Of a stretch of 64,000 nt of DNA, positions 131 to 9,768 are shown piece after piece; the stretch's first letter is position 1; each line of letters begins with the position of its first letter. A model generated the notes under the pieces. It was not told the DNA's origin. It worked only from the letters and a program-made list of their open reading frames with translations, and did not search any database. A program made the position numbers and the translations under genes. The stretch is from the NCBI RefSeq assembly GCF_054482595.1, contig NZ_CM137008.1; one strand, 5' to 3'.

Positions 131-2797
131 ATGGAACCTTTTAAATATATATGCCATTACTGGGGAAAATCCTCAAAAAGCCTGACGAAAGGAAATGATA
201 TTCATCTGTTAATTTATCATTGCCTTGATGTTGCTGCTGTTGCAGATTGCTGGTGGGATCAATCAGTCGTACTGCAAAATACTTTTTGCCGAAATGAAAT
301 GCTATCAAAACAGAGGGTGAAGGCCTGGCTGTTATTTTTCATTGCTCTTCATGATATTGGAAAGTTTGATATACGATTCCAATATAAATCAGCAGAAAGT
401 TGGCTGAAATTAAATCCTGCAACGCCATCACTTAATGGTCCATCAACACAAATGTGCCGTAAATTTAATCATGGTGCAGCCGGTCTGTATTGGTTTAACC
501 AGGATTCACTTTCAGAGCAATCTCCCGGGGATTTTTTCAGTTTTTTTGATGCCGCTCCTCATCCTTATGAGTCCTGGTTTCCATGGGTAGAGGCCGTTAC
601 AGGACATCATGGTTTTATATTACATTCCCAGGATCAAGATAAGTCGCGTTGGGAAATGCCAGCTTCTCTGGCATCTTATGCTGCGCAAGATAAACAGGCT
701 CGTGAGGAGTGGATATCTGTACTCGAAGCATTATTTTTAACGCCAGCCGGGTTATCTATAAACGATATACCACCTGATTGTTCATCACTGTTAGCAGGTT
801 TTTGCTCGCTTGCTGACTGGTTAGGTTCCTGGACCACAACGGATACCTTTCTTTTCAAAGAAGATGCACCTTCAGGAATACAAGCGCTAAGAACATATTT
901 TCAGGATAGACAGCAGGATGCGTGTCGGGTACTGGCGCTGAGTGGCCTTGTATCAAATAAGCGTCGTTATGACGGTGTACATGCCTTACTGGACAATGGC
1001 TATCAACCAAGACAATTACAGGTGTTGGTCGATGCTCTTCCTACAGCTCCCGGGCTGACGGTGATTGAGGCACCTACGGGATCAGGTAAAACCGAAACAG
1101 CGCTGGCCTATGCCTGGAAACTTATTGACCAACAACTTGCGGAGAGTGTTATTTTTGCCCTCCCTACACAAGCTACTGCAAATACAATGCTCAGCAGAAT
1201 GGAAGCGAACGCGAGCCGTTTATTTACCTCCCCAAATCTTATTCTTGCTCATGGTAATTCACGTTTTAACCACCTTTTTCAATCAATAAAATCACGCGCA
1301 TTTACTGAGCAGGGGCAAGAAGAAGCGTGGGTTCAGTGTTGTCAGTGGTTGTCACAAAGCAATAAGAAAGTGTTTCTTGGGCAAATCGGCGTTTGCACTA
1401 TTGATCAGGTGTTGATATCGGTATTGCCAGTTAAACACCGCTTTATCCGTGGTTTGGGAATTGGTCGAAGTGTTTTAATTGTTGATGAAGTTCATGCTTA
1501 CGACACCTATATGAACGGCTTGCTGGAGGCAGTGCTCAAGGCTCAGGCTGATGTGGGAGGGAGTGTTATTCTTCTTTCCGCAACCCTACCAATGAAACAA
1601 AAACAGAAACTTCTGGATACTTATGGTCTGCATACAGATCCAGTGGAAAATAACTCCGCATATCCACTTATTAACTGGCGAGGTGTGAATGGTGCGCAAC
1701 GTTTTGATCTGCCAGCTCATCCAGAACAACTCCCGCCCCGCTTTTCGATTCAGCCAGAACCTATTTATTTAGCTGACATGTTACCTGACCTTACGATGTT
1801 AGAGCGAATGATCGCAGCGGCAAACGCGGGTGCACAAGTCTGCCTCATTTGCAATTTGGTTGACGTTGCACAACTATGCTTCCAACGGCTAAAGGAACTA
1901 AATGACACGCAAGTAGATATAGATTTGTTTCATGCGCGCTTTACGCTGAACGATCGTCGTGAAAAAGAGAATCGTGTCATTAGCAATTTCGGAAAAAATG
2001 GGGAGCGAAATGTTGGACGAATACTTGTCGCCACCCAGGTCGTGGAACAATCACTCGATGTAGATTTTGATTGGTTAATTACCCAGCATTGTCCCGCTGA
2101 TTTGCTTTTCCAACGATTAGGCCGTTTACATCGCCATCATCGTAAATATCGTCCCGCCGGTTTTGAGATTCCTCTGGCAACCGTTTTGCTGCCTGATGGC
2201 GAAGGTTACGGACGACATGAGCATATTTATAGCAACGTTAGAGTCATGTGGCGGACGCAGCAACATATTGAGGAACTTAATGGAGCATCCTTATTTTTCC
2301 CTGATGCCTACCGGCAATGGCTGGATAGCATTTACGATGATGCTGAAATGGATGAGCCAGAATGGGTCATCAAAGGCATGGATAAGTTTGAAAGCGCTGA
2401 GTGTGAAAAGAGGTTCAAGGCTCGCAAGGTTCTGCAGTGGGCTGAAGAATATAGTTTGCAGGATAACGATGAAACCATTCTTGCGGTAACGAGGGATGGG
2501 GAAATGAGCCTGCCATTATTGCCTTATGTACAAACGTCTTCAGGTAAACAACTGCTCGATGGCCAGGTCTACGAGGACCTAAGTCATGAACAGCAGTATG
2601 AGGCTTTAGCACTTAATCGCGTCAATGTGCCATTTACCTGGAAACGTAGTTTTTCTGAAGTAGTCGATGAAGATGGGTTACTTTGGCTGGAAGGAAGGCA
2701 GAATCAGGATGGATGGATCTGGCAGGGTAACAGTATTGTTATTACCTACACTCGGGATGAAGGGATGACCAGAGTCATCCCTGCAAATCCCAAATAA
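131..2797 (+). CDS. cas3: Cas3 HD-nuclease/helicase, type I-E (888 aa)
   Basis: ORF translation matches remembered E. coli Cas3/YgcB at full length; followed by casABCDE-cas1-cas2 and CRISPR array. Confidence 0.95.
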   Translation: MEPFKYICHYWGKSSKSLTKGNDIHLLIYHCLDVAAVADCWWDQSVVLQNTFCRNEMLSKQRVKAWLLFFIALHDIGKFDIRFQYKSAESWLKLNPATPSLNGPSTQMCRKFNHGAAGLYWFNQDSLSEQSPGDFFSFFDAAPHPYESWFPWVEAVTGHHGFILHSQDQDKSRWEMPASLASYAAQDKQAREEWISVLEALFLTPAGLSINDIPPDCSSLLAGFCSLADWLGSWTTTDTFLFKEDAPSGIQALRTYFQDRQQDACRVLALSGLVSNKRRYDGVHALLDNGYQPRQLQVLVDALPTAPGLTVIEAPTGSGKTETALAYAWKLIDQQLAESVIFALPTQATANTMLSRMEANASRLFTSPNLILAHGNSRFNHLFQSIKSRAFTEQGQEEAWVQCCQWLSQSNKKVFLGQIGVCTIDQVLISVLPVKHRFIRGLGIGRSVLIVDEVHAYDTYMNGLLEAVLKAQADVGGSVILLSATLPMKQKQKLLDTYGLHTDPVENNSAYPLINWRGVNGAQRFDLPAHPEQLPPRFSIQPEPIYLADMLPDLTMLERMIAAANAGAQVCLICNLVDVAQLCFQRLKELNDTQVDIDLFHARFTLNDRREKENRVISNFGKNGERNVGRILVATQVVEQSLDVDFDWLITQHCPADLLFQRLGRLHRHHRKYRPAGFEIPLATVLLPDGEGYGRHEHIYSNVRVMWRTQQHIEELNGASLFFPDAYRQWLDSIYDDAEMDEPEWVIKGMDKFESAECEKRFKARKVLQWAEEYSLQDNDETILAVTRDGEMSLPLLPYVQTSSGKQLLDGQVYEDLSHEQQYEALALNRVNVPFTWKRSFSEVVDEDGLLWLEGRQNQDGWIWQGNSIVITYTRDEGMTRVIPANPK

Positions 2798-3211
2798 CTT
2801 CGGGAATGATTGGTATCAATGACGATAACAAGACCAATAACGGTTTATCCCTACTTAAGTAGGGAAGGTGCACAATGTACATCTTCTTTTAATTTCCCGG
2901 TATGAGATTTTATATTCGCAGTATGAATATTTTATGTAATAAAATTTATGGTAATTATTATAACTAAAAGTTTCTTTGATAATAAAACGAATAACTTGCA
3001 GATTTGAAATGCATGCATTATTGTCTTTAAACAATTCAACACATCTTAATATATGTATAGGTTAATTGTATTAAACCAATGAATATATTTTTGCAGTGAA
3101 TGTGATTATTGAATTAATTACGCCGTATTTTTTCTTTGTTTTTACCGATAACGGAAGTGTGCCGACGTATAGAAATGCAGGAGAAATGTCGGAGCATATG
3201 AAGGAGAACAA
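2798..3211. promoter_or_regulatory. AT-rich cas3-casA intergenic region; expected location of the cas operon promoter (H-NS/LeuO controlled in K-12); contains a 16-bp perfect palindrome at 2849-2864
   Basis: Position and AT-richness seen in sequence; promoter assignment by analogy to K-12, no motif mapped precisely. Confidence 0.45.
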
Positions 3212-4720
3212 ATGAATTTGCTTATTGATAACTGGATCCCTGTACGCCCGCGAAACGGGGGGAAAGTCCAAATCATAAATCTGCAATCGCTATACTGCAG
3301 TAGAGATCAGTGGCGATTAAGTTTGCCCCGTGACGATATGGAACTGGCCGCTTTAGCACTGCTGGTTTGCATTGGGCAAATTATCGACCCGGCAAAAGAT
3401 GACGTTGAATTTCGACATCGCATAATGAATCCGTTCACTGAAGATGGGTTTCAACAACTCATCGCGCCGTGGATAGATATGTTCTACCTTAATCACGCAG
3501 AACATCCCTTTATGCAGACCAAAGGTGTCAAAGCAAATGATGTGACTCCAATGGAAAAACTGTTGGCAGGGGTAAGCGGCGCGACGAATTGTGCTTTTGT
3601 CAATCAACCGGGTCAGGGTGAAGCATTATGTGGTGGATGCACTGCGATTGCGTTATTCAACCAGGCGAATCAGGCACCTGGTTTTGGTGGTGGCTTTAAA
3701 AGTGGTTTACGTGGAGGAACACCTATAACCACCTTCGTACGTGGGATCGATCTTCGCTCGACGGTGTTACTCAATGTCCTCACAATACCTCGTCTTCAAA
3801 AACAATTTCCCAATGAATCACATACGGAAAACCAACCTACCTGGGTTAAGCCTGTCAAACCCAATGAATCTGTGCCAGCTTCGTCAATTGGCTTTGTCCG
3901 CGGCTTATTCTGGCAACCAGCGCATATTGAATTATGCGACCCCATTGGGATTGGAAAATGTTCTTGCTGTGGGCAGGAAAGCAATTTGCGTTATACCGGT
4001 TTTCTTAAGGAAAAATTTACCTTTACAGTTAATGGGCTATGGCCCCATCCGCATTCCCCTTGTCTGGTAACAGTCAAGAAAGGGGAGGTTGAGGAAAAAT
4101 TTCTTGCTTTCACCACCTCCGCACCATCATGGACACAAATCAGCCGAGTTGTGGTAGATAAGATTATTCAAAATGAAAATGGAAATCGCGTGGCGGCGGT
4201 TGTGAATCAATTCAGAAATATTGCGCCGCAAAGTCCTCTTGAATTGATTATGGGGGGATATCGTAATAATCAAGCATCTATTCTTGAACGGCGTCATGAT
4301 GTGTTGATGTTTAATCAGGGGTGGCAACAATACGGCAATGTGATAAACGAAATAGTGACTGTTGGTTTGGGATATAAAACAGCCTTACGCAAGGCGTTAT
4401 ATACCTTTGCAGAAGGGTTTAAAAATAAAGACTTCAAAGGGGCCGGAGTTTCTGTTCATGAGACTGCAGAAAGGCATTTCTATCGACAGAGTGAATTATT
4501 AATTCCCGATGTACTGGCGAATATTAATTTTTCCCAGGCTGATGAGGTAATAGCTGATTTACGAGACAAACTTCATCAATTGTGTGAAATGCTATTTAAT
4601 CAATCTGTAGCTCCCTATGCACATCATCCTAAATTAATAAACACATTAGCGCTTGCCCGCGCCACGCTATACAAACATTTACGGGAGTTAAAACCGCAAG
4701 GAGGGCCATCAAATGGCTGA
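3212..4720 (+). CDS. casA: Cascade large subunit CasA/Cse1 (502 aa)
   Basis: ORF length and N-terminus MNLLIDNWIPVRPRNGGKVQIINL match E. coli CasA. Confidence 0.95.
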   Translation: MNLLIDNWIPVRPRNGGKVQIINLQSLYCSRDQWRLSLPRDDMELAALALLVCIGQIIDPAKDDVEFRHRIMNPFTEDGFQQLIAPWIDMFYLNHAEHPFMQTKGVKANDVTPMEKLLAGVSGATNCAFVNQPGQGEALCGGCTAIALFNQANQAPGFGGGFKSGLRGGTPITTFVRGIDLRSTVLLNVLTIPRLQKQFPNESHTENQPTWVKPVKPNESVPASSIGFVRGLFWQPAHIELCDPIGIGKCSCCGQESNLRYTGFLKEKFTFTVNGLWPHPHSPCLVTVKKGEVEEKFLAFTTSAPSWTQISRVVVDKIIQNENGNRVAAVVNQFRNIAPQSPLELIMGGYRNNQASILERRHDVLMFNQGWQQYGNVINEIVTVGLGYKTALRKALYTFAEGFKNKDFKGAGVSVHETAERHFYRQSELLIPDVLANINFSQADEVIADLRDKLHQLCEMLFNQSVAPYAHHPKLINTLALARATLYKHLRELKPQGGPSNG

Positions 4721-5195
4721 TGAAATTGATGCAATGGCTTTATATCGAGCCTGGCAACAACTGGATAATGGAGCATGTGCGCAAATTAGACGTGTTTCAG
4801 AACCTGATGAATTACGCGATATCCCTGCGTTTTATAGGCTGGTGCAACCTTTTGGTTGGGAAAACCCACGTCACCAGCAGGCTCTTTTGCGCATGGTGTT
4901 TTGCCTGAGCGCAGGAAAGAATGTCATCCGACATCAGGACAAAAAACCGGAGCAAACAACAGGTATCTCGTTGGGAAGAGCTTTAGCCAATAGTGGAAGA
5001 ATTAACGAGCGCCGTATCTTTCAATTAATTCGGGCTGACAGAACAGCCGATATGGTCCAGTTACGTCGATTACTTACTCACGCCGAACCCGTACTTGACT
5101 GGCCATTAATGGCCAGGATGTTGACCTGGTGGGGAAAGCGCGAACGCCAGCAACTTCTGGAAGATTTTGTATTGACCACAAACAAAAATGCGTAA
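4713..5195 (+). CDS. casB: Cascade small subunit CasB/Cse2 (160 aa)
   Basis: 160-aa ORF overlapping casA stop, operon position. Confidence 0.93.
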   Translation: MADEIDAMALYRAWQQLDNGACAQIRRVSEPDELRDIPAFYRLVQPFGWENPRHQQALLRMVFCLSAGKNVIRHQDKKPEQTTGISLGRALANSGRINERRIFQLIRADRTADMVQLRRLLTHAEPVLDWPLMARMLTWWGKRERQQLLEDFVLTTNKNA

Positions 5196-5207
5196 GGAAA
5201 CCTTTCT

Positions 5208-6299
5208 ATGTCTAACTTTATCAATATTCATGTTCTGATCTCTCACAGCCCTTCATGTCTGAACCGCGACGATATGAACATGCAGAAAGACGCTATTTTC
5301 GGCGGGAAAAGACGAGTAAGAATTTCAAGTCAAAGCCTTAAACGTGCGATGCGTAAAAGTGATTATTACGCACAAAATATTGGTGAATCCAGTCTCAGAA
5401 CAATTCATCTTGCACAATTACGTGATGTTCTTCGGCAAAAACTTGGTGAACGTTTTGACCAAAAAATCATCGATAAGACATTAGCGCTGCTCTCCGGTAA
5501 ATCAGTTGATGAAGCCGAAAAGATTTCTGCCGATGCGGTTACTCCCTGGGTTGTGGGAGAAATAGCCTGGTTCTGTGAGCAGGTTGCAAAAGCAGAGGCT
5601 GATAATCTGGATGATAAAAAGCTGCTCAAAGTTCTTAAGGAAGATATTGCCGCCATACGTGTGGATTTACAGCAGGGTGTTGATATTGCGCTTAGTGGAA
5701 GAATGGCAACCAGCGGCATGATGAGTGAGTTGGGAAAAGTTGATGGTGCAATGTCCATTGCGCATGCGATCACTACTCATCAGGTTGATTCTGATATTGA
5801 CTGGTTCACCGCTGTAGATGATTTACAGGAACAAGGTTCTGCACATCTGGGAACTCAGGAATTTTCATCGGGTGTTTTTTATCGTTATGCCAACATTAAC
5901 CTCGCTCAACTTCAGGAAAATTTAGGTGGTGCCTCCAGGGAGCAGGCTCTGGAAATTGCAACCCATGTTGTTCATATGCTGGCAACAGAGGTCCCTGGAG
6001 CAAAACAGCGTACTTATGCCGCTTTTAACCCTGCGGATATGGTAATGGTTAATTTCTCCGATATGCCACTTTCTATGGCAAATGCTTTTGAAAAAGCGGT
6101 TAAAGCGAAAGATGGCTTTTTGCAACCGTCTATACAGGCGTTTAATCAATATTGGGATCGCGTTGCCAATGGATATGGTCTGAACGGAGCTGCTGCGCAA
6201 TTCAGCTTATCTGATGTAGACCCAATTACTGCTCAAGTTAAACAAATGCCTACTTTAGAACAGTTAAAATCCTGGGTTCGTAATAATGGCGAGGCGTGA
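5208..6299 (+). CDS. casC: Cascade backbone subunit CasC/Cas7 (363 aa)
   Basis: 363-aa ORF, operon position. Confidence 0.95.
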
Positions 6300-6301
6300 A
6301 C

Positions 6302-6976
6302 ATGAGATCTTATTTGATCTTGCGGCTTGCTGGGCCAATGCAAGCCTGGGGGCAGCCGACCTTTGAAGGAACGCGACCTACCGGAAGATTTCCGACCCGA
6401 AGCGGGTTATTAGGGCTACTCGGGGCTTGTCTTGGGATCCAACGTGATGATACTTCTTCATTACAGGCGTTATCAGAGAGTGTGCAATTTGCAGTGCGCT
6501 GCGATGAACTCATTCTTGACGATCGTCGTGTGTCTGTAACGGGGTTGCGTGATTACCATACAGTCCTTGGAGCGCGAGAAGATTACCGTGGTTTGAAAAG
6601 TCATGAAACGATTCAAACATGGCGCGAATATTTATGTGATGCCTCCTTTACCGTCGCTCTCTGGTTAACACCCCATGCAACGATGGTTATCTCAGAACTT
6701 GAAAAAGCAGTATTAAAGCCTCGGTATACACCCTACCTGGGGCGGAGAAGTTGCCCACTAACACACCCGCTTTTTTTGGGGACATGTCAGGCATCGGATC
6801 CTCAGAAGGCGCTATTAAATTATGAGCCCGTTGGCGGCGATATATATAGTGAGGAATCAGTTACAGGGCATCATTTAAAATTTACGGCGCGCGACGAACC
6901 GATGATCACCTTACCTCGACAATTTGCTTCCCGAGAATGGTATGTGATTAAAGGAGGTATGGATGTATCTCAGTAA
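6302..6976 (+). CDS. casD: Cascade subunit CasD/Cas5 (224 aa from ATG at 6302)
   Basis: ORF 6296-6976; N-terminus MRSYLILRLAGPMQAWGQPTFEG from the ATG at 6302 matches CasD. Confidence 0.93.
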   Translation: MRSYLILRLAGPMQAWGQPTFEGTRPTGRFPTRSGLLGLLGACLGIQRDDTSSLQALSESVQFAVRCDELILDDRRVSVTGLRDYHTVLGAREDYRGLKSHETIQTWREYLCDASFTVALWLTPHATMVISELEKAVLKPRYTPYLGRRSCPLTHPLFLGTCQASDPQKALLNYEPVGGDIYSEESVTGHHLKFTARDEPMITLPRQFASREWYVIKGGMDVSQ

Positions 6977-7562
6977 AGTCATCATTGCCAGGGCCTGGAG
7001 CAGGGATCTTTACCAACTTCACCAGGGATTATGGCATTTATTTCCAAACAGACCGGATGCTGCTCGTGATTTTCTTTTTCATGTTGAGAAGCGAAACACA
7101 CCAGAAGGCTGTCATGTTTTATTGCAGTCAGCGCAAATGCCTGTTTCAACTGCCGTTGCGACAGTCATTAAAACTAAACAGGTTGAATTTCAACTTCAGG
7201 TTGGTGTTCCACTCTATTTTCGGCTTCGGGCAAATCCGATCAAAACTATTCTCGACAATCAAAAGCGCCTGGACAGTAAAGGGAATATTAAACGCTGTCG
7301 GGTTCCGTTAATAAAAGAAGCAGAACAAATCGCGTGGTTGCAACGTAAATTGGGCAATGCGGCGCGCGTTGAAGATGTGCATCCCATATCGGAACGGCCA
7401 CAGTATTTTTCTGGTGATGGTAAAAGTGGAAAGATCCAAACGGTTTGCTTTGAAGGTGTGCTCACCATCAACGACGCGCCAGCGTTAATAGATCTTGTAC
7501 AGCAAGGTATTGGGCCAGCTAAATCGATGGGATGTGGCTTGCTATCTTTGGCTCCACTGTGA
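6963..7562 (+). CDS. casE: CRISPR repeat endoribonuclease CasE/Cas6e (199 aa)
   Basis: 199-aa ORF, operon position. Confidence 0.95.
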   Translation: MYLSKVIIARAWSRDLYQLHQGLWHLFPNRPDAARDFLFHVEKRNTPEGCHVLLQSAQMPVSTAVATVIKTKQVEFQLQVGVPLYFRLRANPIKTILDNQKRLDSKGNIKRCRVPLIKEAEQIAWLQRKLGNAARVEDVHPISERPQYFSGDGKSGKIQTVCFEGVLTINDAPALIDLVQQGIGPAKSMGCGLLSLAPL

Positions 7563-7577
7563 TTGAGGTGTAATAAA

Positions 7578-8780
<1,203 letters not shown>

Positions 8781-8885
8781 AAACAAAGAATTAGCTGATC
8801 TTTAATAATAAGGAAATGTTACATTAAGGTTGGTGGGTTGTTTTTATGGGAAAAAATGCTTTCAGAACAAATGTATACTTTTAGA
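8781..8885 (+). promoter_or_regulatory. CRISPR leader, AT-rich, between cas2 and the first repeat
   Basis: AT-rich ~105 bp directly upstream of repeat 1; canonical repeats are leader-proximal. Confidence 0.7.
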
Positions 8886-9768
8886 GAGTTCCCCGCGCCA
8901 GCGGGGATAAACCGCATTTAATGCAAAACTAATTGCACAATAAATAGAGTTCCCCGCGCCAGCGGGGATAAACCGGCGATAAACCTCCTCATCGCTGATA
9001 TCAATAAGAGTTCCCCGCGCCAGCGGGGATAAACCGATAAAGGCTCGGCGGCGCAAAAAATGGCACGGGAGTTCCCCGCGCCAGCGGGGATAAACCGCTC
9101 TCGTTGTTGTGCCTCAGTACCGGTGCGCGGAGTTCCCCGCGCCAGCGGGGATAAACCGCACACCGGTGCGACGGGAAACGTTCAGCGGCCGAGTTCCCCG
9201 CGCCAGCGGGGATAAACCGGGAATAGTTAATTTCGGTGATGGCTGCGTAAAGAGTTCCCCGCGGCAGCGGGGATAAACCGAGTAATGCTGCGTTGAGATG
9301 ACCAGGCGGGCTGAGTTCCCCGCGGCAGCGGGGATAAACCGTTGACGCCAGCGGCGACCCGCGCCACGGGCTTGAGTTCCCCGCGCCAGCGGGGATAAAC
9401 CGTAGCCAGACGTACTCGCAATCTGTCGGCGGTCGAGTTCCCCGCGCCAGCGGGGATAAACCACCAGTTCTCCGTATTCTGTGGTTATCGTTGCTGAGTT
9501 CCCCGCGCCAGCGGGGATAAACCGGGAGTTCAGACATAGGTGGAATGATGGACTACGAGTTCCCCGCGTTAGCGGGGATAAACCGCCCGGTAGCCAGGTT
9601 TGCAACGCCTGAACCGAGAGTTCCCCGCGCCAGCAGGGATAAACCGGCAACGACGGTGAGATTTCACGCCTGACGCTGGTGTTCCCCGCGCCAGCGGGGA
9701 TAAACCGGGCGCACTGGATGCGATGATGGATATCACTGAGAATTCCCCGCCCCTGCGGTAGAACACCC
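8886..9768 (+). CRISPR. Type I-E CRISPR array: 15 repeats of 29 bp (GAGTTCCCCGCGCCAGCGGGGATAAACCG) and 14 spacers of 31-33 bp, period ~61 bp; terminal repeat at 9740-9768 is degenerate
   Basis: Repeat starts at 8886, 8947, 9007, 9069, 9130, 9191, 9252, 9313, 9374, 9435, 9496, 9557, 9618, 9679, 9740; variants in repeats 7, 8, 10, 12, 13, 14. Confidence 0.97.

Follow-up and report, generated by a model that had tools for sequence, protein, structure and literature searches.

Which DNA does a strongly AT-rich spacer at the leader end of a CRISPR array record, and does that position make it a recent acquisition? These questions are raised by spacer 1 of the iap-side array in the 64,000-nt stretch analysed here (contig NZ_CM137008.1 of RefSeq assembly GCF_054482595.1; hereafter 'the window'), which is Escherichia coli chromosome, with 1,101 bp that are 100% identical in eight RefSeq genomes (for example, TUM18780). 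The locus itself, a type I-E array of E. coli, is ordinary and has been annotated before, as 'CRISPR' in TUM18780, whose locus is identical. The original prediction placed a leader-proximal spacer of about 22% GC at 8915–8946, and its coordinates and sequence proved exact. The array and its leader are built as follows.

8781–8885, plus strand: leader, 105 nt, 27.6% GC, one SNP relative to K-12
8886–9768, plus strand: iap-side CRISPR array in full; 15 repeats, the last of them degenerate, with 14 spacers
8886–8914, plus strand: repeat 1, GAGTTCCCCGCGCCAGCGGGGATAAACCG
8915–8946, plus strand: spacer 1, leader-proximal, 32 nt, 21.9% GC (7/32 G+C), sequence CATTTAATGCAAAACTAATTGCACAATAAATA
8947–8975, plus strand: repeat 2, source of the 3' handle hairpin in the spacer-1 crRNA

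The array shows the type I-E layout throughout, with a 29-nt palindromic repeat that fits the consensus GWGTTCCCCGCGCCAGCGGGGATAAACCG (as quoted in PMC3338789), 32-nt spacers and a period of strictly 61 nt. Its polarity is set by the AT-rich leader, which lies between cas2 and repeat 1, as the prediction had also read it, and iap, on the minus strand, follows downstream. At exactly 32 nt, spacer 1 keeps the 61-nt register and has a consensus repeat on either side; no second copy was found within the window, leader included, at up to three mismatches, and the array matched no Rfam family at gathering thresholds. Repeat 1 ends in G, the base that type I-E takes from the protospacer-adjacent motif (PAM), the final repeat base in these systems being PAM-derived (Swarts 2012, PMC3338789). 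Repeat 10 (9435–9463), which precedes spacer 10 (9464–9495), ends in A rather than G, and because this base is PAM-derived, spacer 10 was probably taken beside a non-consensus PAM ending in A. The repeats are polymorphic elsewhere as well: repeats 7–8 (9252–9341) carry GCGGCAGC, repeat 12 (9557–9585) has TT for CC in the loop, repeat 13 (9618–9646) has A for G in the stem, repeat 14 (9679–9707) begins GTG and the terminal repeat (9740–9768) is degenerate.

The closest known system is that of K-12, whose type I-E genes follow the same order (cas3-casA-casB-cas7-cas5-cas6e-cas1-cas2-leader-array-iap) and whose iap-side array (CRISPR1, also 'CRISPR2.1') has the same 29-nt repeat behind a leader one SNP apart, a variant named CRISPR-T/leader-T (Diez-Villasenor 2013, PMC3737337). 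Spacers 11–13 of the window (9525–9678) recur unchanged in K-12, as the last three spacers recovered there, and, on this identity, read as the shared ancestral trailer end, in contrast to the clone-specific leader-proximal spacers. The window departs from K-12 in its ten leader-proximal spacers and in a 1-nt deletion in cas1. The 3' end of cas2 (8751–8770) and the middle of the leader (8824–8843) share a directly repeated 20-nt sequence (TTAAGGTTGGTG..., 85% identity), which is also found in K-12.

The operon spans 131–8780, directly before the leader, and places all eight type I-E genes (cas3, cse1, cse2, cas7, cas5, cas6e, cas1 and cas2) beside the array.

131–2797, plus strand: cas3, full-length reading frame
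3212–4720, plus strand: casA, full-length reading frame
4713–5195, plus strand: casB, full-length reading frame
5208–6299, plus strand: cas7e, full-length reading frame
6302–6976, plus strand: cas5e, full-length reading frame
6963–7562, plus strand: cas6e, full-length reading frame
7578–8494, plus strand: cas1e pseudogene, 1-nt deletion and frameshift
8496–8780, plus strand: cas2e, intact, 94 aa (TIGR01873, 142.9 bits)

NCBIfam equivalogs scored above cut-off for seven of the cas genes, the eighth, cas1, being in two fragments. Its deletion lies at 8018/8019, where K-12 GGGCAACC has become GGGCACC (8014–8020); the frame shifts at codon 147/148 and runs into a stop at 8049–8051, and neither half (182 and 164 bits) reaches the TIGR03638 cut-off of 215.6. 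The catalytic residues of Cas1, H208 and D221, lie beyond residue 150. The locus thus has no intact Cas1 integrase, and with cas1 dead the array is frozen, nothing having been added after spacer 1. The reading frames of cas3, Cascade, cas6e and cas2 are full-length, and interference could, as far as these frames tell, still work if the operon were derepressed; E. coli type I-E systems are normally silenced by H-NS. Among the related loci that we read, TUM12357 has a cas6e with an internal stop (L014, 26499–27098), A41 and SA31-1 have an IS3 element next to their queE-side array (L017, 26675–27837; L018, 26575–27737), and where the other cas variant is present, a Hok/Gef toxin gene separates cysH from cas3 (L016, 8147–8299).

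The distribution of spacer 1 was assessed by blastn against a panel of 5,426 complete E. coli genomes (RefSeq). Exact copies were present in 14 of them, in a CRISPR feature every time, and the same 14 genomes, among 1,020 that match the relevant cas1 segment, were the only ones with the cas1 deletion allele. Spacers 4–6 were likewise confined to these 14 genomes, and spacers 2–3 to 11 of them. Cas1 was annotated as 'frameshifted' in all five RefSeq carriers examined, and the flanks held no SNPs over 2.1 kb in the five genomes checked, so that the carriers form one clone, recovered from humans, chickens, pigs and ducks in Japan, China and Switzerland. In each of the six arrays read, from the window and five RefSeq genomes, spacer 1 came first after the leader, and it lay at an equal offset from cas2 in the other genomes listed. 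The arrays read vary solely by internal deletions and duplications, and given flanks free of SNPs, array rearrangement outpaces point mutation in this clone, which is without Cas1. Spacer duplications (4–5, 4, 11–13) and deletions (2–3, 9) were seen in XH990, THO-010, GF66.1 and Santai.

Spacer 1 is thus the last acquisition of this array and older than the spread of the clone. Because acquisition requires Cas1, the order of events would have been gain of spacer 1 and then the cas1 frameshift. The prediction had called spacer 1 the most recent acquisition, and array polarity bears this out in the sense of last added, but not in the sense of recent: although leader-proximal, it is common to all 14 clone genomes, every one of them cas1-dead, and is fixed there beside the frameshift.

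The prediction had also placed spacer 1 far below its host and the other spacers in GC content, which the window as a whole (52.5% GC) and the other 13 spacers (41–75% GC; mean 56.0%, s.d. 10.3%) confirm, spacer 1 lying 3.3 s.d. below the latter (z = −3.3). Stretches of 32 nt with seven or fewer G+C make up 0.55% of the 32-mers of the window, and the probability of at least one such spacer among 14 would be ~0.07 if spacers were drawn from host-like DNA. To place this value among spacers rather than host DNA, we used a comparison set of 74 unique E. coli type I-E spacers from both arrays of 10 strains (mean 50.6% GC, s.d. 13), three of which (3/74) had a GC content of 22% or less, with a minimum of 15.6%; on this background, ~44% of 14-spacer arrays are expected to hold one such spacer. 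At a looser threshold, 13 of the 74 had 35% GC or less, versus 5.8% of host 32-mers with 34% or less. E. coli type I-E spacers therefore show a fat AT-rich tail, and spacer 1 falls within it: it is a clear outlier in its own array and an ordinary member of the low-GC tail among E. coli spacers. GC bias is absent from spacer selection by Cas1-Cas2 in E. coli K-12 (Swarts 2012, PMC3338789), and with spacer choice GC-neutral, the composition of a spacer mirrors the local composition of its source DNA.

A search of sequence databases for the target, as the prediction had proposed, yielded no protospacer in any collection. Blastn with a word size of 11 and E values up to 10 gave no credible match among 50,697 phage records (best E = 0.3) or 72,556 plasmids (best E = 0.06, Acinetobacter). 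The 5,426 complete E. coli genomes, plasmids included, contained no credible copy of spacer 1 outside CRISPR arrays at these settings; the non-CRISPR matches were limited to look-alikes upstream of fhuE and in rfbA (best E = 0.1). In IMG/VR, none of six patterns matched, these being the 30-mer shared with a related spacer described below (the 'twin'), the 22-mer core, both 20-mer ends and two wobble-degenerate patterns built on the open frame GIYCAISFALN. Neither the 22-mer core nor the wobble pattern matched GTDB representative genomes, the core being absent from representative genomes of 100,044 species. The wobble pattern found three matches in JGI metagenomes, in which third codon positions and flanks disagree, and all three are chance matches. 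The spacer 1 string was not found in a literature search.

In sum, a protospacer of at least ~90% identity with an AWG PAM in a phage, plasmid or prophage was absent from these searches, with the large scans limited to exact patterns: the three largest collections were scanned for exact cores of 20–30 nt only, and a diverged target could be missed. The prediction had held that finding no match anywhere would count against its reading; this is formally what was found, but such a standard is too strict where a match rate of 2–7% is the norm, matched spacers in E. coli and Salmonella amounting to 7% for CRISPR1 and 2% for CRISPR2 (Touchon & Rocha 2010, PMC2886076). An absent protospacer is the usual outcome for E. 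coli type I-E spacers. The orphan spacers of that study resemble spacer 1 in their absent protospacers and slow turnover, and its arrays were likewise shared within clonal groups, with frequent partial or pseudogenised cas sets (17/40 type I-E systems were partial; PMC2886076). Unlike those orphans, spacer 1 has a composition at the low extreme and an oppositely oriented second sample in another lineage.

This second sample is the twin GGTATTTATTGTGCAATTAGCTTTGCATTAAA, which ~15 other E. coli genomes (13 full 29/30 alignments and one slightly shorter) carry near the old end of their queE-side array and which was read directly in three strains. The twin (28% GC) is the reverse complement of positions 3–32 of spacer 1 at 29/30 identity; relative to reverse-complemented spacer 1, it gains CC at one end and is without CA at the other, and the implied prespacers, 33 bp each, are displaced by 3 bp with a single base difference. 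In AMSHJX01 it lies at 2501–2532 of L001 (also in L016, L017 and L018) as the second-oldest of ten spacers, and its three neighbours in that array are also AT-rich (22, 34 and 31% GC); a concatenated query of the twin and these neighbours matched nothing in phages or plasmids. The three twin strains with cas regions fetched carry the other type I-E variant (GTG-type repeat, larger CasA, intact cas1). Since recombination cannot invert and shift a spacer, the two are separate, independent captures of the same, probably foreign, locus.

Shmakov et al. (2014, in NAR) reportedly described oppositely oriented ('flipped') and shifted ('slipped') spacers in type I-E adaptation. Flipped spacers likewise place two spacers over the same DNA on opposite strands, but a flip is the same prespacer inserted backwards, whereas spacer 1 and the twin are separated by a 3-bp offset and one base and lie in different arrays, lineages and system variants. 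Each was presumably captured with its own PAM (AAG for spacer 1; AWG for the twin's CRISPR-A variant, PMC3737337), the acquisition motif of that variant being CWT/AWG (Diez-Villasenor 2013, PMC3737337). From the two captures we reconstructed a 34-nt target, AAGCATTTAATGCAAARCTAATTGCACAATAAATACCCWT, and deduce the full site as 5'-(AA)G-CATTTAATGCAAA[A/G]CTAATTGCACAATAAATACC-C(WT)-3', in which the PAM bases in round brackets are predicted. A coding target was considered and rejected: one of the six frames is open and the A/G difference between spacer 1 and the twin is synonymous in it, with about two open frames expected by chance (our own estimate). An operator or palindrome was likewise rejected, the TGCAA-N6-TTGCA hairpin reaching −3.3 kcal/mol (z = −1.4), with 21 of 200 shuffled sequences folding equally.

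What kind of element supplies such spacers can be read from two AT-rich E. coli spacers that are traceable. One of the twin's neighbours (GATCTAAAAAGGATCTGCGGAACTGAAAAAAT, 34% GC) finds perfect protospacers (32/32, AAG PAM) in three IMG/VR contigs, and a spacer of 15.6% GC from the iap-side arrays of A41 and SA31-1 matches one contig (L023) perfectly, with an ATG PAM. The protospacer sites lie at 262–293 (plus strand) and 1023–1054 (minus strand) of L023, also in L021, and around 14090–14120 of L022. Both sites in L023 are non-coding and fall within a ~1-kb patch of 30–45% GC that adjoins baseplate and tail genes of 55–60% GC, in a contig of 52% GC overall; the protospacer-bearing contigs are myovirus-like and 47–52% GC overall. 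The same two spacers had no match in the GenBank phage collection, and the examined parts of the protospacer-bearing contigs held no sequence like spacer 1. Because AT-rich spacers can thus come from a contig of ~52% GC, the composition of spacer 1 does not prove a wholly AT-rich element, and, more generally, the GC content of a source element cannot be read off a single 32-nt spacer. Spacer 1 may, by analogy with these two spacers, stem from a GC-normal temperate phage in which an intergenic or accessory ('moron') stretch is AT-rich. The prediction's AT-rich mobile element or intergenic target thus holds in part: locally AT-rich foreign DNA is the best reading, and the element need not be AT-rich overall.

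The source might instead be AT-rich along its whole length, as a low-GC plasmid or a virulent phage could be, and not just in one patch of a GC-ordinary element; this reading stays near the prediction's own words, and we take it seriously without favouring it. The low GC content of both spacer 1 (21.9%) and the twin (28%) would suit it, and the twin's three AT-rich neighbours fit repeated sampling of one invader; yet the spacers of 34% and 15.6% GC map to contigs of 47–52% GC, falling there within a 1-kb patch of 30–45% GC, and the AT-rich coliphages in the phage collection gave no match. We consider it very unlikely that spacer 1 is chromosomal, from self or a sister species, and has since eroded. 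The candidates for such a source were the region upstream of fhuE, where the fhuE–hinT intergenic region of GF4-3 matches at 28/33 with one gap (E = 0.1) and that of K-12 at 25/33, and the 3' end of rfbA in the O-antigen cluster of O91-type strains, which matches at 27/31 with a 2-nt gap (E = 2). Matches of equal strength (E = 0.06–0.3) occur in unrelated Acinetobacter plasmids and Serratia and Erwinia phages, both candidates are gapped and lack an AWG PAM (TTG and TCT), the twin matches spacer 1 at 29/30 and not fhuE, and the 22-nt core is in none of the 100,044 species' representative genomes; we rejected both sites as chance-level, gapped and PAM-less.

Hardly any weight falls to the notion that spacer 1 was never acquired at all, being leader-derived or filler between duplicated repeats, or an assembly artefact. 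Its 22% GC does resemble the 27.6% GC of the leader, but its exact 32 nt, its 61-nt register and its two flanking consensus repeats speak against filler, as does its lack of similarity to the leader or the rest of the window; an artefact would not recur identically in 14 independent assemblies, and a leader duplication cannot yield an opposite-strand twin in a different array and lineage. A foreign origin is, by contrast, likely, to judge from GC-neutral spacer choice, the lack of a non-CRISPR copy in E. coli and the opposite-strand twin.

We therefore think it probable, with good confidence, that spacer 1 is a genuine type I-E spacer from locally AT-rich foreign DNA, the last taken up before cas1 was lost, and passively inherited. 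Cas1-Cas2 would have placed it next to the leader in the iap-side array, from a locally AT-rich foreign source absent from the databases searched; the 1-nt deletion would then have killed cas1 in the ancestor of the clonal lineage, and spacer 1 would have been inherited passively since. The prerequisites for a guide are present in the sequence (leader, repeats, and intact frames for cas6e, Cascade and cas3). Were the H-NS-silenced operon expressed, leader-driven transcription would allow Cas6e to cut a 61-nt crRNA, which would load into Cascade, whose genes are all intact, and guide Cas3 to the target. This crRNA is placed as follows.

8907–8967, plus strand: predicted mature crRNA, 61 nt; 8-nt 5' handle AUAAACCG, spacer 1 and a 21-nt 3' handle

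These ends are presumed from Cas6e processing in K-12. The 3' handle contains a CCCCGC/GCGGGG hairpin, and the repeat hairpin appears in the fold. A crRNA length of 61 nt is also given in PMC3338789. We infer the PAM of the spacer-1 target, the expression of the operon and its competence for interference.

The mildly notable results at this locus are two, namely the twin spacer and the perfect linkage of spacer 1 to the cas1 frameshift. For the biology of these arrays, the linkage means that a leader-proximal position is not evidence of recent acquisition, the adaptation gene being dead here, and it makes spacer 1 and the cas1 deletion a clone marker, both picking out the same 14 of 5,426 genomes. 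The twin raises a more speculative idea, to which we give a small chance: the ~37-bp AT-rich site, captured independently and on opposite strands by the two divergent E. coli type I-E variants, may be a natural hot spot from which prespacers are taken, on an enterobacterial mobile element that is widespread but has yet to be sequenced. One capture is an old spacer on the queE side, the other the last spacer on the iap side. Such a site could be, for example, an origin, a nick site or an operator region, set between AAG and CWT. The 34-nt reconstructed target and its predicted PAMs provide a query for future viromes and plasmidomes. If the idea is true, orphan AT-rich spacers would mark a class of elements that is missing from current databases.
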